From positions 2,852,001 through 2,916,000 of the forward strand of contig CM039006.1 of assembly GCA_017499595.2 (NCBI GenBank): a DNA stretch of 64,000 nucleotides, read 5' to 3'. Position 1 is the stretch's first letter, and the number at the start of each line of letters is the position of its first letter. The notes below the pieces were generated by a model, which worked only from the letters and a program-made list of their open reading frames with translations, did no database searches and was not told where the DNA came from. Source of the stretch: Psilocybe cubensis. Lineage: Eukaryota. The translations under genes and the position numbers were made by a program. Positions 4,178 to 26,110 of this stretch are shown here, in pieces.

Positions 4178-5257
4178 CGATTAGGATCGGATCGCTGTTA
4201 ATTTGTCTGCTCGAAAGACGGTACTCTATTTAAATTCCAAATGTTTCGTGACTGTGAATTACTAGTAACTAGACAATTGTATTCATTATCTCGGTCCTTT
4301 CTCCACGCAGGACTGATATGAGACACGTACCCAGGAAAATAGTAAGCACGCGATACCTAAGAATCTCCACTGCTCCGAATTGCCACCAAAATTGAATTTA
4401 GACCACACACGGTCCACCGACATACCACCCACTGGGTGGTATGTCTTTATAAGATTCCGCTGGGTGCCACTTAAATGCTAGCAATTACATACCCGTACAT
4501 TAACCCCGCTGTTGAAATATAGAATAAATCATCGGATGTGTGCAGATGTATCGTAAAGGCCAGAAGTAGTTTGATACGCCATGGCGATCAAACCCGATAC
4601 AAGATCACTTCCACTCTCCGAACGCGATATAGATGTGGGTCGCCTGTGGTGTTCCGCTGTCCAGCCTCCAGAAATTTAGCGAATCGAATAGCGAGCGATA
4701 TGTCGTCCGCACAGCCGTTATGGGAAACAGGGACCAAGGGGAAGGTATAAATAGTCTGCGCAAGACGAAACGCTAGAGGCGCCACAATCTCACTCACTAT
4801 GGCAAGCCCATATTCAGAGTCGTTAGCCCTAGATAGTTGACACATGTCAGCTATATGTCAACATGATACTATTCACGCCAAACAGAAGGACAGCCACGAA
4901 CCCTTTGACGACTTCTTTGTCGGAAGAAAATATGTGCAAGATAACAACAGGATCCTGGATCAGATAGAGCGACAAGAAATGCCACAATGCAATCGGCATA
5001 TCTTCTGATCTCCGAAGAGTCCACCAAAACCTTTCCATCTTATTTTTCCGGAATTCAAAATACTCCAAGAAGATGCGTTCATGCTGCTACTATGCATCGG
5101 TCAGCACAATACTGCGACCGTCGAGATTCTGCAGAAATCCGTCAAAACAGATCTCTTGGACGTAGAAAAGGAATATCAACAACGCAAATTTGACCTGCAA
5201 TATGATCAATTTTCGCAACATTCTGGATTATGCGTTAGCATAATAGGCAAGTATCAT

Positions 5258-5488
5258 TGTGACGGGGCGCAGTTTCCCACGAGTCCCGACACACTCGAGC
5301 CTCAAACAGACTGGATAAATCACTCTATTCAAAGCTGGGGCTATTCTTCGTATACTACTGTACTTATATACTCTAGAACTACCTACGTAATGAATATTAT
5401 TCTAGCATTTGAAATATCTAAGTGAGTGATAAGACAAAGCAAACAGATAATCAAAGGTCGTTACCTTTTCGGTAACGACTCCGTCACA
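5258..5488 (-). repeat. 3' LTR (231 bp)
   Basis: Reads identical to 13374-13604; 8-bp terminal inverted repeat with TG...CA ends. Confidence 0.97.
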
Positions 5489-8400
5489 TACGCCCTCCAG
5501 GCATTCCAACGGAATGGCTCTTCTTTTGGGGTCGGTGAGTGTTATACGGATTGTGTCTTCCTGCCTTAGTGGCCGCCGCCGCTTGATTAAGGATGATGTT
5601 GTTGACTGTCTTCATGTGACGTGAATTCCCGAAGGAGGCGGCCATCTCGATGGCATTCTCAATCTCGCGGTCGGTTGGGAAAGGGATGTCCAGTGGGAAG
5701 CGTGGTAGCCTCGGTGTGGTCGCGATGCCTCCCATGTTATTGAACGTGGTTAGACGAACATCAGGTGAAGCATCCTGGTGCAGGTAAGTGACAAACTCCG
5801 GGTATCCAACGGGCATGAATAGCGATGGGTTAGCGTCAGGTTTGAGTACCCGGTAGGCGAATGCGATGAATTTCTTGAGTTGCGCGGCGTGAACAGAATG
5901 GATGACTCGGTTGGGGTCCAGAATTCCGTACTCGAAGCGCGACAGCCTAAAGAGAACGAGGGAGCCGGCCATGGGGAAATTGATCTGGAACGGTCGTCCG
6001 TAATGATCGCGCGTGAAGTCGAAGAGACTAGATATGGCTGGATCGACGCCAAGACTCACTGGGTGGTGAGTGCTAAAATTAGCCACCATGAAGATTCGCA
6101 CAAATCTAAACTTACTCGAATTACTCGCATTTTGGTCGTTGACCGAGGGTTGAGATGGAGGGTTGCCCTCTGAAACGGACTGGGTGTTGTGGGGTTGATC
6201 ATGAGTGTCTTGGATAATCATCGCATTAGACTCGTTTGACGCAGTGCTCGTTGAGGCTTGTGTTTGTTCGGACCCGGCGGCTATATTCAAATTGTGCATT
6301 TGCTGCTCGACAGGTATCGCATTGGGTTGAGTAGAAACAGATAATGTAGGCTGAGACATGGTGTTGCCAGTGTGTGTTTTCGTCCCAGTGTTTATATACT
6401 CTAACTCTCCAATATCCATTTCAAATTCAATAAGTCCCGTGAAAATTTGGGGGTCGTCTGGTGCGTGGTCTTGGATTTCTCTCGAAAGTTCTAATATGTT
6501 CTTTGCGCCTTTAGCGTCCAGGTACTCTTCAAATGCATGTAAGTGTTTTATTTCTGTGTAAGGAAGCCAGCTCTTATCTCCAGATTTCCATAACACCTCA
6601 AATGCTGCATTGATTCCTTCACCATTGTGTGACAAAATACTTTGTACCGCCCACTCGCCCTCCAAATCTTCGTGTGGGAAGAAGATTTGTGTATCAAGAC
6701 GACCTGGAAACAAGCGATCATCGTTGGGAACGTGCACGCGAAGCAAAGAAGAATGAAAAACATCATGGACTCCTCTTTTTCTCAGATTAGGCGAAATATC
6801 CACCCGGTAAGAGTTGTTTCCAAAGGCCTCTGTGATCTTGTAAGGTCCCAAAAAACGAGGTGTCAGCTTCAAGCTCAAACCTTTAGGTATAGAAATATTC
6901 TTAGTGGAAATGTAAACAAAGTCGTCTACCTTAAACGGCGCCGGAACACGTTTTCTATTAGCATTTCGTATATACTTAACCCGCGAGGCAATTAAAGAGT
7001 CGTGGGCTTGCATAATCGAAGCCTTCATCCTATTGGCAAATACCTTAACCCCGGGATATTCGACGGGCCTGTTTGATTCCCAAATAAATGAACGAGGCAT
7101 GCGACCTGTATTCAAGAAAAACGGTGCAAACCCAGTTGACTCGGATCGCGCAGAGTTAATAGCGAATTCAATTGCGGGTAGCCGTACAACCCAATCCTTT
7201 TGGTTGGGAGAAATGCACTGGCGCAGCATCTGGCCAATTGTTTTGTTAGCACGCTCAGTAGCGCCATCTGTTTGTGGGTGATAAGCGCTCGACATTTTTA
7301 ATTTAGTCCCAATTAATTTATGTAATTCTTCCCAGAAATGACTAGTAAACCACTTGTCTCGGTCACTAACAATTGAAGATGGCAAGCCGTGATGCTTGTA
7401 TACTTCAGCAAATACTAGTTCAGCAACATCCCTAGCCTTGTAATCTGTACAACCCGGGACCAGGTGAACCATACCCGAAAAAAGATCAATAATAACCACA
7501 ATCATATCAAATGAAGCATCTCTATTTCTAGATGTTGGTAACGGGCCTACAAAATCAATACCGATTGATTCCCAAGGCCGTCGAGGTAAATCAAGCGGAT
7601 TCAGCAGACCATACGGCTTGGTATGCGAGTCCTTAGTTTGCTTACACGTTGGGCATGAGTCACAAAAAACTTCAATGTCTTTTGCCATAGACTTCCACCA
7701 CACATTATCCCGCAGGTGCGTGTAAGTTTTTCTTGCACCCAGATGAGCCAAAAGTGAATGCGCTTCAGTGATAATCACCTCACGAAGCGACTGTCCTGAT
7801 CCTGGCAGCCTAACATCAGGTATGCACAGCAATTTCTTATTATCTTGCTTAAGATACATAAGACCTGAGGTCATATCAACCTCAAAATTTTTGAAGTCAC
7901 TCGGTGCCTTGGAAATTGGGCCAAAGAACAAGTCATCTTTGTAGTGTCCCTTTATCTCGTTCACAACGTCAATACCACCCATGTTTTCAAGATAGAAATT
8001 CAAAGAATTGTTATTAGGTTCAATTACATTATCTCTATCAAAGTTAACTGAAGGATTCTCAGGTGAAACTACATCCTGTGGAGCCAATGACTCGTCAGTT
8101 GGAAGCTTTTTCCGAGCAGGGATACGAATCACTAACCTTTCCTTGGACCCAGACTGTTTGGCCGCGCCCTCCGTGACTGGTTGAGGGCCCAATAATGTAA
8201 AGAAATTCTTCATACGGGAGGCAAATTCCTCAGAAGTTTCCAGCCGGCCGGTTTCCGCCCCTGGACGTTCACGCGCGGTTTTACTGCGGCGTCCAATAAA
8301 ATTAGGATTAACTACGGCGGAACAGACCGCCTCCATACCAACTAGAACTGGAGCGGCAATCAATTCCATTGCATGAGCTCTGGAGTCTATTTCCTCAATG

Positions 8401-11400
8401 TCATCATACTCGGTATATTCCGAGGGTGCGCGTACAGTTCCAGGTGCGTCGTTTGAGTATATTCGAGATAGGGCATCACTGAGAATATTCTCTGTACCCG
8501 GTACATAGATTACTTCGAAATTAAACATACCCAATTGTTCCAACCATCGGGCACGTCGCCCATTGCTCGTGCGTTCAACATCTCGATGATTTAATAAAGT
8601 AACTAACCCCTTGTGATCGGTATACCAGCGGAACTTCACACCTAGCAGCAAGTCACGATATCGCATCATTGTTTCAAGTCCCGCGAGCATCTCGACCTCG
8701 TGTACGGGATAATTTTGCTGAGCCGGTGAGAGTTTTGCAGAATAGAATGCTGCTACTGATGCATTCTTCCAGTCTTCACCTTGGCTGATCACGCCGGCCA
8801 CACCAGTAATACTGGCATCAGTGATCATGTTAATTGGCGGTGCGCCCTCCGAATAATCTAACGGGCGCCTATGGTGATCACGAAATCGATTCGCGCGCTG
8901 TTTAATTTCCTCAAACGCGCGTTGGTGAGTTGGTTCCCATCGAAATGGAACCTCTTTGCTAGTCAAGGTATGTAATACTCCCATGGGAATTCGTATGCTT
9001 TCGATGTCGTCAGCTAAATAACTTGCTGCACCTAAAAACCCTCGGAGCAAGTCACGATTAGTGGGAACCTTCCATTTTAGTAATGCATCCACCTTGTGTG
9101 GATCCATCTGGATTCCGTCATCGTCCACAATACGGCCGAGGATTTTCACTCGCTTGCATAGGAAATCCAATTTATTAGCTGAGAGATAGAATTTCTCTTT
9201 CTTCAGGATGTCTAATACAATTGTTACATGTTTAATATGGTCTTCAATTGTATCTGAATAAATCACTATGTCATCTAGATAGACATCTAAAAACTTCCCA
9301 ATGTATGGGGAAAAAATGTGATTCATTAATGACTGAAAGGTTGCAGGTGCATTACAGTCACCTTGTTGAATTACATGAGAGACCATATTACCATTTGGGG
9401 TGGAAAATGCAGTCTTCCAGACGTCGTTGGGTTCAATCCTGACTTGTTCGTAAGCGTCTTTCAGGTCAATCATGCTTCGGTAGGGCTTACTTGACACTCG
9501 ACGCATGATCCCATCAATATCAGGTAGCGGGCTTGTCAATTTTCGCGTGTTCTGATTCCTAGCTCGCAAATCATCAACTGTTCGCAACTTCGCAGGCTCG
9601 CCTGGCTTTGCTGGCTTGGGAATGAATAGCATTGGTACTGTATTCCGTGAGTTAGTGATTTCCCATCTACCCGTTTTGAGGTAAGCATTCCTTTTTTCAA
9701 CCCACTGATCCATAAAGGCTTCAGGACATCGTGTAGGACGCCATGGATATTGCAGAGTCTCGTCAATTAAGTCAATTTTGTGGTTAATGACTCGAAGCGG
9801 CGGTAATGGTGTTTCCGCTGCTGTCTTACACAAAGGTGCCGCCTGTTCTCGAAGGTAATCGCGAATTTCATCAAGATTTTCTTCTCGCAGCCTCGCGGAT
9901 CGCGATTGTAAGGTTCGCACAGCGGTTCCCTTGACTGGTAATGATTCTTTTGAGCCTACTATAACTCTTGTAGGGTTCAATCCCACCATTACTTGATGTT
10001 GATATATGAATGGTGTTCCCAGAATTAAGTCATAACTAGACAGGTTTATTATATCAAAGCTCCTCTGCTCTTTGATACCCTGATATGTGATTTGAGACTG
10101 TACCTTATAATTCACTTTAGATCTGGATCCTAAAACTGCCAGCTGTACAACGAGAGGTGTACCCAGTTCCTCTCTCTTTAGTCTCAATTGATCAGCTAAA
10201 GTAGAGGACATAAAATCGCACAATGAACCTGTATCAATTAAGGCTCGTGCTGGGCGTCCAGCAATGTCTACTACGATCACAATAGGGTCAGGAACTATCC
10301 TAGAAGGGTCCTTAATTTTTGCTGAATTTCTCTGTGCCGCAGGAATACTCTGTTCCTCCGGTTGTTGGGCGCTTAATTCAACATAGATTTGTTTTACCTT
10401 GTCTGTGGTCGTTTCATCGTCCGAGGTGTTTGTTTCAGTGTCGGACATTGACCCGGACTCGTCTGAAGTGTAATCTTCTATTAAGTCTTCTAAAAACTGC
10501 TCGTACTCCTCGCCCTCCTGACTTTGTGGATCAAAAAGGCATCTGAGGTCAAAGAAGTCAGTGAAATTTTCACAGTAAACTTCGTTGTACCACCTGGAGA
10601 AGTACTTCGATATCTTTCTATGAAACCAATCCCTAATGTTAAGCTTGGGATTCTCCATGTCAGAAGCGGGTACCTCAAAGTGTAGGTGAGTATTCCAATC
10701 AATGATAATGTAACCATCCGTATCTTTATTGTAATGGACACCAAAACGACTGGTTTTTCTCCGTCGTGCGGCCTTGGAAACAGCCAGAAAGTGTGCGAAT
10801 GACCTCCCCACGCTCAATTTCCATGCCGCGTTCGCTTCCCATATGTTAAACTTTGGGGTTCTCCGGAACCATCGCCGGATCGGTTTTACACGTAGTCTTG
10901 TTTGCTGAGTACGCTTGATAGCGTACCAGCGTCCAATCAGAAAATCCGGCCTCAATACTTGACCTACATCGAGTAGTTCATCTTCGCATGTTACCGAATC
11001 AAGCACCACAAGTTTCTGGCCTCCGTCCGTTGGGTAAACGTAGAAGCGGTCAAGCTCTCTACTCTCCCAGCTGGGATCTCCCGGGTAAGGTCGCATGGAC
11101 TCCAATTGGTGCTTCACCAGCTCACACAATGGATTTCCTAGCTCCCCATCGGTCCATTTACCTTCGTTGGGATCATACAGATTTCTCGCCGCTTCGTCAA
11201 ACGAAATCGCTGCCTTAGAAGCTTGATCCGGTTCATCAAACTCATCCTCAGCTATTCCACACATCCCCATGTCAACTTGCATGCAATGGGAGTCGATAGC
11301 TTGTTCCGTAGTATTTTCCAATGCAGACAGTGCGTTCTCATTCCCTACAGCAACCTCAATGTTAAAACTCTTTACCCCGGGTGGTTTCCCATTATTATAC

Positions 11401-13211
11401 TTAGATTTTACAGTTTGGGAACGAGGACAATTTCGTCCAATATGTCCCCGTTCGCCGCAACGATAACATTCAATTTCTGAATTAGAAGACCGTCCATTAT
11501 TATAACGGTAAGATTTTGAATTGTTTTCAGATTTGAATTCATTCGGTTTTGAACTGTTGAATCGGCCCTTTGAATCGTCAGGCTTCTCTTGATTGTCACG
11601 ACGAGCATCTTGACGATTGTCTCCCGAGTTACCTTTACTTTTTAGGTCATGATTTCGCTTGCTATTGAAATTATTTGAGCTTTGAGTACTCCTTCCATTT
11701 CGTTGTGAGTGTCTCTGATTGTTCTCAATTTGTTCTGCAATCTCATAGCGAGTAGCCACCTGAATCACCTCATCCCATGAGTTCTGTTCGTAGTCAAGGC
11801 CTTCTTTCCATAGCGCCGATTGTAGTTCGGGTCGTAGTCCATTCCACAAACGATCTACGCGTTGAGCGCTTGTTGATTTCCCAATTATCCTAAATAATAT
11901 CATGAGTTCTGCAGCAAATTCTGCAACTGTCATTGACCCTTGAGAAAAGTTTTCAAGCTTCTTTCGCTGTCTAAGGCGATAATCCGGCGGGAAACAGTAG
12001 TTGTACAGCTCAGTGAAGAATCTCTGTCGGTCATATTGCTCTACCGAAATGGAGACCATTGTAGAATAGAACTTGTAAGCCTTTCCTGCTAGATAATCTG
12101 CACATTTGACCACTTGATCTCTAGGGTGTAGTGCTGCTTCATCGCAGAATCGTTCGCATTGAGTTATGTACTTATAAAACTTCATGAAATCTGCCTCTCC
12201 ATGATATTTATCGGGTGCCGTTGGCGCCAGCGGTTTGTATCTTTGTGTTGAAGTCAAATTTCTCACGGTATCCAAAGGACCGAACTGTTGGGCGCTTATG
12301 TTTGCTTCGTCGTTGGTGGGAACACTAGGCCTGGGCTTGTGAAAGAACTGTCCGAGTAAGCTCTCGGGTGGTAGCTGATTGCTAGGGCGAATATTGTCCG
12401 CCTTAATTGCGTGCACGCGTTGACGTGCCGCTTGAGAAATCAACTCCTCAACGTCATGCGACATTGGAGTACTCGAAATGCCTCGAGGATTTCTATCCGG
12501 TTCTGTCCGGGTCTGGGCCTCGCTCTTTCTGCAATAGACCTCCTTGGCCTTCATGTAGAGTTGCTCCAGTTCACGGAACCGTAAGGTTTCCTCGTCATCG
12601 CCTTCCGGTTCATCAGATGAATTAATTTGAAATTTGTTATTTTCACGTGTATTCAAAATTTGTTGGTGGATTGCTTTCTGCACCTCAGGGTTCAATTCAC
12701 TCTCAGGGATGTCAATTGCACCCCAATTCAAAGGGTCTATACCCTTCCCTTTCGATGTACTAGCCTCTGGTTCTGGAGTATTTTCTTTGGAACCAATTAC
12801 ACTAGATTGCTGTTGCACTCCCAAGGCTCTTTCCAGAGTACTCAATCTACTCATTAAACTGTTAACCATCTCCTTAGTCTCACTTACAACTAGGTGAGCA
12901 TCCTTGATGGCAACCACCTCCTGTCTATTAGAGGTGGGATATACGCGTGTATCTAAGCTATGACTACGACGAATTCGCCTAGCTGCAGCGGCTGTGTTCG
13001 TCCCGGCCCCCCGGGGTTCATTCCCGTGGCCATTCCCAAAAGTTACACGCCGGTCATCCCGACCTCGCGTGTCCTCCTCATCGTGTTCGATGGGATCTTG
13101 CTGCTTCGAGGCAGCCGAACCTGGATTAGGTTCTGGGGAAACAGCATCTTTAGGGTGGTTACCCTTCAGCTGCTTTCCGCCCGTATTGCGTGTGGGATAT
13201 CTTCCCGACAT
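5484..13211 (-). CDS. Single-frame Gag-Pol polyprotein, 2575 aa (Gag, CCHC knuckle, aspartic protease, RT, RNase H, integrase, chromodomain, extra domains)
   Basis: CYRCGERGHIGRNC at 11427-11468; LIDTGS (DTG at 10227-10235); YLDD at 9270-9281; RNase H motifs TDAS/TDHK/SDALSR; integrase HHCC plus IDFVG/SDRD/DGATER; GPY motif; chromodomain EWAVQSILSH...FEVLWKSGDKSW at about 6510-6656. Confidence 0.97.
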   Translation of the reverse strand: MSGRYPTRNTGGKQLKGNHPKDAVSPEPNPGSAASKQQDPIEHDEEDTRGRDDRRVTFGNGHGNEPRGAGTNTAAAARRIRRSHSLDTRVYPTSNRQEVVAIKDAHLVVSETKEMVNSLMSRLSTLERALGVQQQSSVIGSKENTPEPEASTSKGKGIDPLNWGAIDIPESELNPEVQKAIHQQILNTRENNKFQINSSDEPEGDDEETLRFRELEQLYMKAKEVYCRKSEAQTRTEPDRNPRGISSTPMSHDVEELISQAARQRVHAIKADNIRPSNQLPPESLLGQFFHKPRPSVPTNDEANISAQQFGPLDTVRNLTSTQRYKPLAPTAPDKYHGEADFMKFYKYITQCERFCDEAALHPRDQVVKCADYLAGKAYKFYSTMVSISVEQYDRQRFFTELYNYCFPPDYRLRQRKKLENFSQGSMTVAEFAAELMILFRIIGKSTSAQRVDRLWNGLRPELQSALWKEGLDYEQNSWDEVIQVATRYEIAEQIENNQRHSQRNGRSTQSSNNFNSKRNHDLKSKGNSGDNRQDARRDNQEKPDDSKGRFNSSKPNEFKSENNSKSYRYNNGRSSNSEIECYRCGERGHIGRNCPRSQTVKSKYNNGKPPGVKSFNIEVAVGNENALSALENTTEQAIDSHCMQVDMGMCGIAEDEFDEPDQASKAAISFDEAARNLYDPNEGKWTDGELGNPLCELVKHQLESMRPYPGDPSWESRELDRFYVYPTDGGQKLVVLDSVTCEDELLDVGQVLRPDFLIGRWYAIKRTQQTRLRVKPIRRWFRRTPKFNIWEANAAWKLSVGRSFAHFLAVSKAARRRKTSRFGVHYNKDTDGYIIIDWNTHLHFEVPASDMENPKLNIRDWFHRKISKYFSRWYNEVYCENFTDFFDLRCLFDPQSQEGEEYEQFLEDLIEDYTSDESGSMSDTETNTSDDETTTDKVKQIYVELSAQQPEEQSIPAAQRNSAKIKDPSRIVPDPIVIVVDIAGRPARALIDTGSLCDFMSSTLADQLRLKREELGTPLVVQLAVLGSRSKVNYKVQSQITYQGIKEQRSFDIINLSSYDLILGTPFIYQHQVMVGLNPTRVIVGSKESLPVKGTAVRTLQSRSARLREENLDEIRDYLREQAAPLCKTAAETPLPPLRVINHKIDLIDETLQYPWRPTRCPEAFMDQWVEKRNAYLKTGRWEITNSRNTVPMLFIPKPAKPGEPAKLRTVDDLRARNQNTRKLTSPLPDIDGIMRRVSSKPYRSMIDLKDAYEQVRIEPNDVWKTAFSTPNGNMVSHVIQQGDCNAPATFQSLMNHIFSPYIGKFLDVYLDDIVIYSDTIEDHIKHVTIVLDILKKEKFYLSANKLDFLCKRVKILGRIVDDDGIQMDPHKVDALLKWKVPTNRDLLRGFLGAASYLADDIESIRIPMGVLHTLTSKEVPFRWEPTHQRAFEEIKQRANRFRDHHRRPLDYSEGAPPINMITDASITGVAGVISQGEDWKNASVAAFYSAKLSPAQQNYPVHEVEMLAGLETMMRYRDLLLGVKFRWYTDHKGLVTLLNHRDVERTSNGRRARWLEQLGMFNFEVIYVPGTENILSDALSRIYSNDAPGTVRAPSEYTEYDDIEEIDSRAHAMELIAAPVLVGMEAVCSAVVNPNFIGRRSKTARERPGAETGRLETSEEFASRMKNFFTLLGPQPVTEGAAKQSGSKERLVIRIPARKKLPTDESLAPQDVVSPENPSVNFDRDNVIEPNNNSLNFYLENMGGIDVVNEIKGHYKDDLFFGPISKAPSDFKNFEVDMTSGLMYLKQDNKKLLCIPDVRLPGSGQSLREVIITEAHSLLAHLGARKTYTHLRDNVWWKSMAKDIEVFCDSCPTCKQTKDSHTKPYGLLNPLDLPRRPWESIGIDFVGPLPTSRNRDASFDMIVVIIDLFSGMVHLVPGCTDYKARDVAELVFAEVYKHHGLPSSIVSDRDKWFTSHFWEELHKLIGTKLKMSSAYHPQTDGATERANKTIGQMLRQCISPNQKDWVVRLPAIEFAINSARSESTGFAPFFLNTGRMPRSFIWESNRPVEYPGVKVFANRMKASIMQAHDSLIASRVKYIRNANRKRVPAPFKVDDFVYISTKNISIPKGLSLKLTPRFLGPYKITEAFGNNSYRVDISPNLRKRGVHDVFHSSLLRVHVPNDDRLFPGRLDTQIFFPHEDLEGEWAVQSILSHNGEGINAAFEVLWKSGDKSWLPYTEIKHLHAFEEYLDAKGAKNILELSREIQDHAPDDPQIFTGLIEFEMDIGELEYINTGTKTHTGNTMSQPTLSVSTQPNAIPVEQQMHNLNIAAGSEQTQASTSTASNESNAMIIQDTHDQPHNTQSVSEGNPPSQPSVNDQNASNSSKFRFVRIFMVANFSTHHPVSLGVDPAISSLFDFTRDHYGRPFQINFPMAGSLVLFRLSRFEYGILDPNRVIHSVHAAQLKKFIAFAYRVLKPDANPSLFMPVGYPEFVTYLHQDASPDVRLTTFNNMGGIATTPRLPRFPLDIPFPTDREIENAIEMAASFGNSRHMKTVNNIILNQAAAATKAGRHNPYNTHRPQKKSHSVGMPGGRM

Positions 13212-13373
13212 CCTGATATGACGATGGTAAGTACAAAAATGAGTTCAACGGCGTCGCACCTGGTATCCTCGGGTGATCAAACCAAGGGGTAACCAAAGGG
13301 TTATCGTCGTCGAAGTCGAGTAAGAGCGCGAGAGTAGTAAACGAAGATAGAGTAGAGCGTGAAGTCAAAAATA

Positions 13374-13604
13374 TGTGACGGGGCGCAGTTTCCCACGAGT
13401 CCCGACACACTCGAGCCTCAAACAGACTGGATAAATCACTCTATTCAAAGCTGGGGCTATTCTTCGTATACTACTGTACTTATATACTCTAGAACTACCT
13501 ACGTAATGAATATTATTCTAGCATTTGAAATATCTAAGTGAGTGATAAGACAAAGCAAACAGATAATCAAAGGTCGTTACCTTTTCGGTAACGACTCCGT
13601 CACA
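13374..13604 (-). repeat. 5' LTR (231 bp)
   Basis: Reads identical to 5258-5488; contains a minus-strand TATATAA near 13480-13486. Confidence 0.97.
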
Positions 13605-15218
13605 ATCATGTCATTCTTACCTGGTCACGACATATTCAAGATGGCAGCCCTTCTATGACACCGATAAAACAAATCCATGTGAAAGACTTTCTAACGATGC
13701 CGGCCAGCGCGTGTGGGCACCCAAAAGGCGACTTTTCACTTTGTTTGATATACATGCATAATGGAAAGGGACTTACGTACTGGGACATCTGTTTACCCAT
13801 TGCTTCATCGTCTGTGAAAATGCTGGTGATTTTACGTTCTCCTGAACTAAATTAACAAGATTTCGGTTGCCTTTGCCAATGTCGATGAATCACCTTCAAT
13901 AGTTGCATCAAGTGATTCTCTTTTCTCCTGCAGCATGCACCGACGCGACCTTAGATTCGCTTGCAGGATTAACCGTCGCATCTAACAGGCAAATATTGAA
14001 AATGTGCGGATTGTCCTGTGGGCGGTAAATAAACGAGGCTTCCGACCATCCTACAGTCAGTTGAGAGTCGGAGACGTGGCATTTTGGACCATAATAAGTG
14101 AAAAGTAGAAGAAATGCTAGGAGCCTTGCGTAGCCTAAGCTAAGGGACACGCTCGCATTACTAGTATGGTGGTTATTAGTTAAAAGCAAGTTTAGGGAGA
14201 TCTCGAATTTTTTGATGGTAATAATTTGATGAAGCAGAAATTTTAATTAACGTTTATTTTCAGCAACATGCCGAAACCTGAAAAATATCAATAAGTATGC
14301 CAAATCTGGATACACATTTTGACTCCGCAACATGCCGACTGACGGCAAAAGTTAAACGCTGATAATAGATTAAGAGACAGATTTTTAGAGAATGTCAAGA
14401 ATGTTTTCTTTACAGAGATTGAAAACCAAACGGCATATGTTAAGATAATTAGAAGAAATCAGTGGTAAGGCTTCATTATACTGATATTCCTGAACTCTCG
14501 GCGCAATCTTGAAAGCGAGTGTTAGTTTGACACGTGCAAGCAACTTTCAAGCTTCCAATTCTAGCATCGCCTGGAGGGTCTTTTGCGGAACTAAGAACAC
14601 CAATCTGCCATACTGAACCTCCGATTTTGATCCAGCATTTATACCCTTCAGGTATTTTTTTCTCGTGGTGATGCAGGTGTAAGCCCAGGACAGGCAGATG
14701 CCAAGGCTCAATCACGAAAAAAAATCCTGTATCAAATCAAAGTGACCATGGTGCGTTGTCTTCCACCGTTGCATGTAAGTGTTAGAGAAGTTGAATTAAA
14801 TCAGCAAATGCATCACTACTACCCTCTGAGCGATCATGATTACTGGTTTTACAATCCGCAATGTAAATCAAGGTTTCCTGATTTTGGGCTTCTACTTGAG
14901 GGCCCTCAAAAATTTCCCGTAAAGAGCGGCTTGAATAGTTGGAAGTGTCTAGCCAGTATGCCGGCAGAATTCATCGCTTACTATGTTTAGTCTGGTTTCT
15001 TGCCCTGTGGCATACATTCTATTTATAGGGTAGTTTCTGTAATTGAAAGGCTTGAAACACACCTCCGGGTAGACGGAGAGATAAACTGACAACTGTTTTA
15101 AGATCCTGCGGTTTACAAGTGATTGTCGCTTCAGCCACTACGCGTTCTTGCGGTCTAGATTATATATATTAGGCCCCTCACCATTGTAGTCTACGCTTTC
15201 CCCGTCACCCTCTCGGAA

Positions 15219-23282: not shown

Positions 23283-24572
23283 CATCAGCAAAAGTGCTCG
23301 GATCCCCAAATGCCTTGTCAAGGCATTTGGAGGCGTCCAAAGGCCCCAATGCCCGAAAGGCATTGTGCGGTTCGTAACGAGAGACTCCGAAGACTGAAAG
23401 GCTTCGAATTATTTATTCCAAGGAAATGATTTAGGTAGTACTAAATATAGCCAAATCATTTGGTTAAAATTTGAGAGTGTCCGTAACATTTAGGCAACAT
23501 TTGGGAGTCCCAAAAACATTTGGCAAACATTTGCCAGTGTTTAAATGTTTTACACTGTTCACATGGTTCCTTATTTAGTGGATCCCTCAGATTATCATAG
23601 CAAGTAAAAAGAACTTGTTGCATTAAGAAAACTTATACTACAACATGACTCCAAAAGGTACAGAGAAGCGAGAAAGTGGGTAAATAACAAAATGATGCTG
23701 AGATGATGTCATCAATAGATGTTACCCATGAATTATAGGAGCTACTTTGGTTGCATGATGTAAGCAAGGTGTGTGTGCAGAAGTGCGCATATACTCACCT
23801 AAAAGTTTGGGAACTAGTGAATAATTATATACCAAGCCGGATATCCAGTAGATCTAAGGCAGAAGGAGAACGGTCTACGGAAAGGCAGATACATGGTCAG
23901 TTGAGGATGATCTAATCAGAAAGGAAGTGGCAGAATTACCTGTGAGTTAGATTCAGCTATGATATACGAAGACTTAGAGTTGAAAAGTCCAAGCCCAAGT
24001 CCCACCAAGCGTCGCCGGAGTAGTGAACATGAGAGTATGTGGAAAGAAAGAAACGGGGGTTGAAAGAGATTATTATGCACAAACAAACAAATATTTGATC
24101 TCCGATTCACTCCGATTCATGCTGATCGCATTGTGACTTCGTTGACAGTCGAGAAATTGTACAGACCGGGTGACCAACTGTACAGAATTCTAATTAGAAC
24201 TAATGTGGCTGTATAGCCAGTAAATTTTGGTGTGGATGAATTATTTCATCAGCATTTGAAAGTCCTGTAAACATTTCTCATAACCGAAGTGTAAAACCAA
24301 ATGTTTTGTGACCTCTTTTAATTTTGTTAAATGATTCCTTCAAGGTTGCACAGTCTACGAATTTTTTTTTGTAAATTGTAGTTACTAGAAATTATTTGGT
24401 GCTTGTTTTGTGCTTCAAAAATGTTTGTGGGGCCTCCAAATGACCACCAAATGATTTGAGTGTTCCCAAATGTTGCCCAAATGTTTTGCGTGACATTACT
24501 GTGTCACGTAAAACATTGGCATGCCTTATAAGGCTCCCAAGGCATTTGGGGGTCTGGTCACTTTTGCTGATG
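23283..24572 (+). mobile_element. Non-autonomous TIR element (1290 bp), CACTA/CMC-like, copy 1
   Basis: Termini CATCAGCAAAAGTG...CACTTTTGCTGATG, 2-bp TSD TG, and many subterminal CCAAATG/CATTTGG repeats. Confidence 0.85.
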
Positions 24573-24779: not shown

Positions 24780-26110
24780 CATCGGCAAAAGTGACCAGAC
24801 CCCCAAATGCCTTTTGTGCCTTTTTAAGCAGGTCAATGTTTTGCGTGACATGTTAAGTCACACAAAAACATTTCACTGAAATTTGGAGGTGCACAAAACA
24901 TTTGGAGAGCATTTGAATGCTCCACAAACATTTATACACCTCAAAGTTCAGTACAAAATATTCCATGTATTTACATTTATCTCTTAATGATTTGTTTGCC
25001 ATAAAACTTGCAGAGAACAATTGATTAAAAATAAAAACAAAGAATAAAACATTGAGTTTAACTTTTTGCTGACACAGATGATTAAAGGGCTTCAAATATG
25101 TTCAAAATGATTTAGGTACGAGAAATTTTACTGACCACACGTAATACCTATGACACTGGCAGGTTGTTTCCAATACGACACCATTGTCATAAGAATTACA
25201 TGTACGTGGGAAATTTAACTTCAAGAAATATAAATCAGAGAGGCCCGTCTCCGATGACAAATTAAATCGGAGACTGAACATCCGTTTTGAGCATAAGAAT
25301 CTGAGACACGCCCAAGTCGCTTTCTTTCTACCCTCTCATGTCCACCACTCTGACGACAGCGCTCTCTGGTTTCAATCAATACTGCTATGCCTCTTTCTCT
25401 GCATTTCAAAACTGTTGATAGAGCTGAAAAGGTGAAAGACATGCTCTCATTTTCATCACACAACCCTAACTGACTGTTTTATACCTTTTCATGGCATGTT
25501 CTTTCTCTGCCTTGATTATTCCTTTCTCTCAAGTGTATCATATAGCCAGATACACATTCTGGTCACCTTATTGGTACGTATATGCGCATATATTTTAGAT
25601 CTGCTTGACCGTGACTCATCACAAAGTAGATCTCGTTGGACGGTTGACACATCAATTCGATTACGTGACTTCGTAACGCCGCCCAGGTTGTAACTTGAAT
25701 CCATTTTCTCTTAGTCATTTCTATGTAGCCTTTGTTGTTCTGAATCTTTTCCAATAATATTTTTCATTGAACTACTACATTCTACTGTGTGAATACCTAA
25801 AGTGGCTAATAGAAGTAGAAATATACAAAATATATCATTGTGTCAATATTGGGTGAACTCTAAATGTTTTTGGGGCTCTCAAAGGCAACTTGAATGTTAT
25901 CCAAATGTTTTTGGGTCTCCCAAATTTTACCGAAATGATTTGATTAAATTTAAATCTAGCTAAAACATTGGTTTTTGTAAATAATTTATAGCCTTTCAAA
26001 ATTCCGAGTCTCTCGTTAGTCAATCTAAAAGGCCATTTGGGCCTTGGGGCATTTGGACGCCTCCAAATGCCTTGGCAAGGCATTTGGGGACTTGGTCACT
26101 TTTGCCGATG
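24780..26110 (-). mobile_element. Non-autonomous TIR element (1331 bp), same family, inverted relative to copy 1
   Basis: Termini CATCGGCAAAAGTGACCA...TGGTCACTTTTGCCGATG and 2-bp TSD TC. The reverse complement of its right end aligns with the left end of copy 1 over more than 100 bp. Confidence 0.87.

Follow-up and report, generated by a model that had tools for sequence, protein, structure and literature searches.

The intact long terminal repeat (LTR) retrotransposon of the Ty3/gypsy type that occupies positions 5258-13604 in a 64-kb window of Psilocybe cubensis DNA (contig CM039006.1) encodes a Gag-Pol polyprotein that continues well past the integrase and ends in what comparison with other mushrooms shows to be a genuine conserved protein module and no chance read-through. 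The window is the whole 64-kb stretch that was analyzed; all coordinates refer to it, and the element and its features lie on the minus strand. The explanation that we favor is that a module under selection and peculiar to this lineage of elements is encoded by the final 1.0-1.2 kb of the internal region, and that it is built from a short conserved motif of hydrophobic residues, a linker of low complexity, a globular domain of ~165 amino acids (aa) and a basic end. This tail is necessarily translated as the C-terminus of the single Gag-Pol, directly behind the integrase SH3 domain and a chromodomain-like segment. It may work with the integrase and the pre-integration complex, either taking part in nuclear traffic or acting as a tether to host chromatin or to a nucleic-acid partner, and it could do so while attached to the integrase or after a protease cut in the linker, for which the hydrophobic motif would be the obvious candidate site. 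We put the chances that the working form of the tail is such a Pol C-terminal accessory module, acting with the integrase or released by the protease, at about even; a second expression route, from the methionine at residue 2285 (Met2285), is possible and is not required by the data.

Anatomy and conservation of the Gag-Pol tail

The element contains a single long open reading frame (ORF), at 13211-5484, which encodes 2575 aa and takes in Gag, Pol and the tail in one unbroken frame. Pfam domains follow one another in the polyprotein as Retrotrans_gag (residues 374-461), zf-CCHC (581-596), RVP_2 (975-1088), RVT_1 (1197-1360), RT_RNaseH (1459-1562), Integrase_H2C2 (1807-1861), rve (1901-1979) and SH3_Tf2-1 (2097-2158). 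This is the order of gag, protease (PR), reverse transcriptase (RT), RNase H (RH) and integrase (IN) that defines Ty3/gypsy elements (Metaviridae), and the LTRs, with their TG..CA ends and short flanking duplication, agree with that assignment. An earlier note, made from the letters of this DNA, had claimed that the ORF stays open past a chromodomain, and it does indeed run for ~340 further codons beyond the chromodomain-like segment, to residue 2575. No stop interrupts the 50 codons between that segment and Met2285, and the tail is in frame with Pol. The stop codon itself (5484-5486) falls within the first 5 nucleotides (nt) of the 3′ LTR, and the last codons, PGGRM, are formed by a purine-rich GGAGGG stretch, a putative polypurine tract, together with the first LTR bases.

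The chromodomain named in the same note fared less well. The segment in question (6507-6662, residues ~2184-2235) follows the Tf2-type SH3 domain and resembles what we take to be the chromodomain consensus, but the label is unconfirmed: Pfam Chromo gave no match at E ≤ 10 with either a 410-aa or a 70-aa piece, a PDB sequence search matched the segment to no chromodomain chain, and a single-sequence AlphaFold model was poor and not interpretable, with a predicted local distance difference test score (pLDDT) of 56.

Behind this segment lies an acidic linker (6360-6506, residues 2236-2284) with an isoelectric point (pI) of 4.3, and 16 residues after Met2285 comes the conserved hydrophobic motif VEQQMHNLNI (6282-6311). 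An S/T/N/Q-rich low-complexity linker (6069-6281), variable in length among relatives, leads into the conserved tail domain (5577-6068, residues 2381-2545), which constitutes an orphan family, and the protein closes with a basic end (5487-5576, residues 2546-2575) that has a pI of 11.7 and contains 9 K/R/H and zero D/E. The window and 6 of 7 relative proteins share the spacing of the motif, hydrophobic-xxx-hydrophobic-xx-hydrophobic-x-hydrophobic; this is the pattern of a classical leucine-rich export signal, and the motif could be a signal of the nuclear export type or, equally, a protease site. The note had also placed the tail in the env position, which does not hold in an env-like sense: the tail is no separate ORF, and no membrane-like segment was found in residues 2184-2575, where the best 19-residue Kyte-Doolittle mean is 0.83.

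The conservation of the tail became apparent in an exhaustive HMMER search of 1,835,955,588 representative proteins, which returned 6 matches in total (E 4.9e-45 to 3.8e-4), all from Agaricales. The relatives are annotated as hypothetical proteins and belong to Gymnopilus junonius, Psilocybe cyanescens, Agrocybe pediades, Cyclocybe aegerita (several loci) and Gymnopilus dilepis. Identity between the tail domain of the window and those of the relatives ranges from 27 to 63%, with 10 invariant columns in an alignment of 7 or 8 sequences. The likeness extends to the very end of the protein. Two of the four relatives that reach the C-terminus (P0002 and P0004) finish with the same GGRM as the window, which marks the layout of ORF end, purine tract and LTR as old and inherited, and three of the four carry 8-10 K/R/H among their last 35 residues. 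In a 663-aa Cyclocybe gene model (P0007), a fragment of RNase H and integrase that shares 49% identity with the polyprotein of the window is fused to a tail that has diverged to 27% identity, and the Agrocybe protein, P0004, begins 40 residues ahead of the motif, exactly at the IEFEM of the window, so that the IEFEM..ELEY part of the acidic linker aligns with its start. In P0004, then, the stretch upstream of Met2285, including the position of the internal TATA described below, is conserved coding sequence. Taken together, the likeness of the relatives, the shared GGRM ends and the P0007 fusion place the tail in one Ty3/gypsy lineage across several gilled-mushroom genera. The earlier proposal of an accessory protein made both as a Pol fusion and from an internal promoter is partly supported: the conserved module (in five other Agaricales species) and, in this copy, the Pol fusion stand, and the internal promoter is hypothetical.

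Neither a known family nor a known fold was found. The tail has no Pfam family, no PDB-sequence match and no usable Atlas match, and the sole match in a PDB profile search, maltase-glucoamylase (E 0.019), was taken as chance. An AlphaFold model built on an 8-sequence tail alignment was poor (pLDDT 49), with a strand-strand-strand-helix arrangement followed by helices; submitted to Foldseek, the check that the earlier note had suggested, this model gave no PDB fold match at E ≤ 0.001, and a separate VIA-wide comparison gave a best Z of 5.7, which is within the noise stated for that tool. The tail bears no likeness to the remainder of the polyprotein and has no second copy in the window, Rfam lists nothing in 5000-13900, and a viral contig scan with the tail returned no relative. 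Word-index protein searches for the 291-aa tail, at similar and at greater lengths, and for residues 2390-2560 of the polyprotein gave no match, a weak negative because they also missed relatives that the collection is known to contain. An exact look-up of four versions of the window protein showed them to be absent from the protein collection. The one locus that came out of a metagenome scan (L001) was rejected as a relative, its 15-residue match lying in an unrelated 515-aa ORF.

Codon usage and the case for separate expression

The tail domain stands apart from the rest of the ORF in its codon usage. The frequency of C at third codon positions is 0.40 in the domain versus 0.19 in Gag-Pol, and that of G or C (GC3) is 0.62 versus 0.42 (Fisher p 1.6e-7). 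Among 150-codon windows, those placed entirely in the tail domain have a GC3 of 0.59-0.65, compared to an upstream maximum of 0.527 and an ORF-wide mean of 0.43 (sd 0.065); 10 other long ORFs in the window range from 0.41 to 0.55. Such codon usage suggests that the domain has an origin of its own or is under a selective regime of its own. The GC-rich third positions probably account for a 100-aa ORF (5750-6052, minus strand) that overlaps the tail domain in another frame.

Several observations weigh against regarding the tail as an accessory part of Pol and nothing else. Distinct codon usage is unexpected for a part of a polyprotein that has been in long residence, and C-rich third positions would fit a unit with its own translational selection or a separate origin. 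Both the window and 4 of 5 relative lineages have a methionine 13-17 residues ahead of the motif, and it is there that independent annotations start the gene models of those lineages, with MS or MA; a separate ORF or a separate start could lie behind this. The role proposed for the tail is being read from position and composition only, with neither a fold nor a family to guide it, and a full-length annotated Pol-tail fusion was not found in a word-index search among proteins of 1416-4507 aa, a weak negative, as that search also missed known relatives.

A tentative alternative, which we hold to be possible at clearly less than even chances, is that the tail doubles as a third gene; the codon usage and the shared methionine count in its favor. 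An internal promoter (TATA at 6398-6392) would give rise to a 3′-coterminal subgenomic RNA, besides the Pol fusion, on which Met2285 or the next methionine would start a ~32-kDa protein acting in trans; the roles envisioned for this protein, in regulation, in traffic or in countering silencing, are just as tentative. The internal TATA and ATG on which the earlier note built this idea are present: TATATAA at 6398-6392, and ACC-ATG-TCT with its A at 6359, 39 nt past the first T of the TATA. The TATA is contained in the word TAGAGTATATAA (6392-6403), which is located within the acidic linker and has the in-frame reading (L)EYIN; the sense strand of the internal region (7.9 kb) holds just one other TATA[AT]A motif. 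The ATG of Met2285 (6357-6359) is in good context (CACC-ATG-TCT) and is a candidate start for an in-frame product of 291 aa (32.2 kDa, pI 9.2) that would end at the common stop; the tail thus presents what distinguishes a Ty1 p22-type product, an in-frame AUG that yields the C-terminal part of a larger one.

The claim that the internal TATA shares a word with the TATA of the LTR is correct, except that the shared word is 12 nt long (TAGAGTATATAA) and not 10. Each LTR holds one copy, and the copy at 6392-6403 is the third and last in the window; with at most one mismatch allowed, 0.37 copies are expected in the window, and at least three were seen in 0 of 100 shuffles. Simulation of the internal region alone gives a more sober picture, which counts against the internal promoter. 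In Markov simulations, 14 of 200 sequences share a word of at least 12 nt with the LTR and ~1% hold the decamer GAGTATATAA, and the score of a local alignment around the 12-mer is equalled in 28 of 100 simulations, the flanks being without alignment. The sharing of the 12-mer with the LTR is thus only weakly more than would be expected by chance.

The geometry of the proposed promoter is also unfavorable. The LTR-driven contig of sequencing run X1 starts 47 nt past the first T of the LTR TATA, but the internal ATG is only 39 nt past its own TATA; with the same 47-nt spacing, transcription would start at 6351, past the ATG at 6359, so that the ATG would either have a leader of ~0-8 nt or be bypassed. 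The methionine following Met2285 (6299) sits inside the hydrophobic motif. P0004 is without the methionine found in the other lineages and is open and conserved upstream of its position. The starts of the gene models are methionines by construction and may follow from masking of Pol before gene calling. Moreover, an independent gene would not need to be open and in frame with Pol, as the tail is.

The RNA data consist of assembled contigs only, which reach 5465-6021 at most on the 3′ side and from which transcript starts are not readable. Runs X1 and X2 are guessed to be RNA, although none of the listed runs is recorded as such. Their contigs over 5465-5910 and 5465-6021 show zero differences to the window and indicate that the 3′ part of the tail is transcribed, a point in favor of the third gene. 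X1 is taken to be RNA because in one of its contigs the 11 letters of 13721-13731 are followed immediately by 13781, a join that removes a 49-nt GT..AG stretch (13732-13780) of a flanking host transcript; since this intron is on the minus strand, host transcription heads toward the 5′ LTR of the element. At the 5′ end of the element, an X1 contig covers 12859-13439. Neither run has a contig over 6022-12858, a region that takes in the ATG and the start proposed at 6365-6375, and X2 also has none at the 5′ end, a hole that is neutral to the question; nor do contig depths allow parts of the element to be ranked. The contig ends at 5465 are most likely a matter of branching where LTR variants meet, and another X1 contig spans 5000-5219, just past the 3′ LTR.

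A stronger form of separate expression, in which the tail would be an accessory gene in its own right on the sense strand, with an internal start in the Pol frame and conserved across Agaricales genera, strikes us as rather doubtful. With its N-terminal motif resembling an export signal, its linker, its globular domain and its basic end, the product would fit a shuttling adaptor that assists the long, intronless RNA of the element in leaving the nucleus, or equally a p22-like self-regulator. Intronless messages accumulate poorly in fungi, and it is from this that the idea of RNA export derives.

It is far less probable that a retained intron acts as a switch. A 43-nt intron-like motif (GTAAGT..CTAAT..TAG, 6073-6115) lies in the variable linker, and its removal from some RNAs would cause a frameshift and a stop after 7 codons, yielding a tail-less Pol or a short Met2285 protein ending 7 codons on, with unspliced RNA giving the full tail. 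The motif is the sole complete GTRAGT..CTRAY..YAG on the sense strand of the element, and its translation (KFRFVRIFMVANF) falls where most relatives show alignment gaps. Against this, 26% of simulated sequences of equal length and composition contain such a motif, which is probably there by chance, and no contig carries the 6115/6073 joint. Nor can the frame of the tail be reached by splicing from any upstream frame, because a stop lies 2 codons ahead of the donor in the frame that would be needed. A distant upstream donor into the acceptor at 6073/6072 was considered and rejected: the candidate, at 12887, has the wrong phase, and the X1 contig continues across it unspliced.

Finally, the proposal that the tail has no function, being a chance extension of the ORF or a piece of recently captured sequence into which translation simply continues, could appeal to its lack of a known family or fold and to its odd composition, but it is close to refuted by domain identities of 30-63% across five other species, by the invariant columns, by the shared GGRM end and element position, and by an element that is intact, young and mobile.

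Relation to known accessory modules

Accessory genes and domains provide retroelements with new abilities in targeting, regulation and host evasion, and very few have been characterized in fungi. The chromodomain of chromoviruses and the C-terminal tethers of the Ty5 and Ty1 integrases are examples of targeting modules found at the C-terminus of integrase. The tail described here shares their position and could plausibly share a role in choosing or reaching a target; it differs from them in having no sequence or fold likeness and no known partner, and in being far larger (340 aa).

The closest published parallels are fungal chromoviruses, in which a dUTPase is found at varying sites, including the Pol C-terminus, and of which some families carry an unnamed additional ORF with no known function (Novikova et al. 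2010, PMC2864245). As far as the passages and one figure legend of that paper go, the two sets of elements agree in the gag-PR-RT-RH-IN order, in a single fused Gag-Pol ORF and in the presence of extra coding sequence at the Pol C-terminus. They differ in that the tail reported here has no Pfam family, is no dUTPase, follows a chromodomain-like part and enters the LTR. On the same passages and legend alone, the additional ORF of that paper may be equivalent to this tail. Judged by titles and abstract openings, no other candidate paper on fungal chromoviruses with an added ORF or domain of unknown function came to light, and a literature search on Psilocybe Gypsy retrotransposons led, at the same level, only to genome papers of other mushrooms.

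Precedents that speak for a third gene come from further afield. In Saccharomyces, the restriction factor p22/p18 that Ty1 itself encodes is produced from a transcript initiated inside GAG, according to PMC4599808 and PMC8458377. If the third-gene proposal were right, the tail would have in common with p22 an internal start in a long ORF, the same frame and a product that is the C-terminal part; however, Ty1 is of the copia type and p22 is half of Gag, whereas the tail is a non-Gag orphan domain behind the integrase with a hypothetical internal start. The env gene of Tor, from Oikopleura, is described as being expressed from an added internal promoter (PMC4402516), and foamy viruses as using an internal promoter for a third gene, tas/bet (PMC13220597). 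As portrayed there, the likeness consists of a promoter downstream of the 5′ LTR that expresses a 3′ gene of a retroelement. The difference is that Tor env and foamy tas/bet are separate ORFs, while the tail is neither a separate ORF nor membrane-like and its promoter is hypothetical.

An orphan module of ~340 aa, with a codon usage of its own and shared by related elements of no fewer than five further mushroom species, is a defined and testable candidate for either a new integrase partner domain or an in-frame subgenomic product. Should separate expression prove true, the Ty1 p22 principle, or retroviral accessory genes, would have a Ty3/gypsy counterpart in Agaricomycetes; should the tail be an extension of Pol and no more, it would join the other additions known from single lineages and would chiefly interest those who study transposons.

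The element and its surroundings

The two LTRs, at 5258-5488 (3′) and 13374-13604 (5′), are direct repeats of 231 nt that are 100% identical, start with TGTGACGG and finish with CCGTCACA (TG..CA). The TATA 12-mer lies at 5364-5375 in the 3′ LTR, which also holds the stop codon of the ORF, and at 13480-13491 in the 5′ LTR, where the RNA-like contig of run X1 starts at 13439. A 5-bp target-site duplication, ATGAT, is present at 5253-5257 and again at 13605-13609. An empty-site allele is represented in runs X3 and X4 by a contig that links 5252 to 13605, skipping 8352 nt with 5 shared letters, and other flanks are found in run contigs joined to an identical LTR end elsewhere. The copy in the window and that in X4 differ at 16 positions, 12 of them synonymous and 4 non-synonymous, and the sole difference in the tail is synonymous. 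The identical LTRs, the target-site duplication, the empty-site allele, the other flanks and the mostly synonymous differences all indicate that the element is intact, young and recently mobile; it is also low-copy and polymorphic between the sequenced samples. The observed/expected ratio of CpG in the element is 0.97, i.e., there is no depletion.

Runs X3 and X4 also contain a 230-nt contig that matches 5481-5516 and then 22 nt at 6651-6672. The depth of this contig, which carries the joint 5516/6651, is 655 in X3 and 138 in X4, compared to ~100 and 40-50, respectively, for the element. The joint lacks GT..AG ends and omits 1134 nt, exactly 378 codons, comprising the chromodomain-like part and the tail. 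It could stem from a commoner sister family, from a tail-less deletion form, or from an artefact of the word GGAGGGCG, which is present at both sites.

At 2575 aa the polyprotein is unusually long, and besides the tail it contains three more stretches, of 230-375 aa each, that have no Pfam match: residues 1-370, ahead of gag; 600-975, between the zinc knuckle and the protease (together within 13211-10300 of the window); and 1570-1800, between RNase H and the zinc domain of the integrase (8500-7800). No obvious tRNA-type primer-binding site was found after the 5′ LTR at 13320-13373 (TATTTTTGACTTCACG...), and near the likely transcript start there are only 7-nt complementarities for priming. Elsewhere in the window, an inverted repeat (23283-23415 and 25978-26110) with 133-nt arms that are 80% complementary and 2562 nt apart may be another mobile element.

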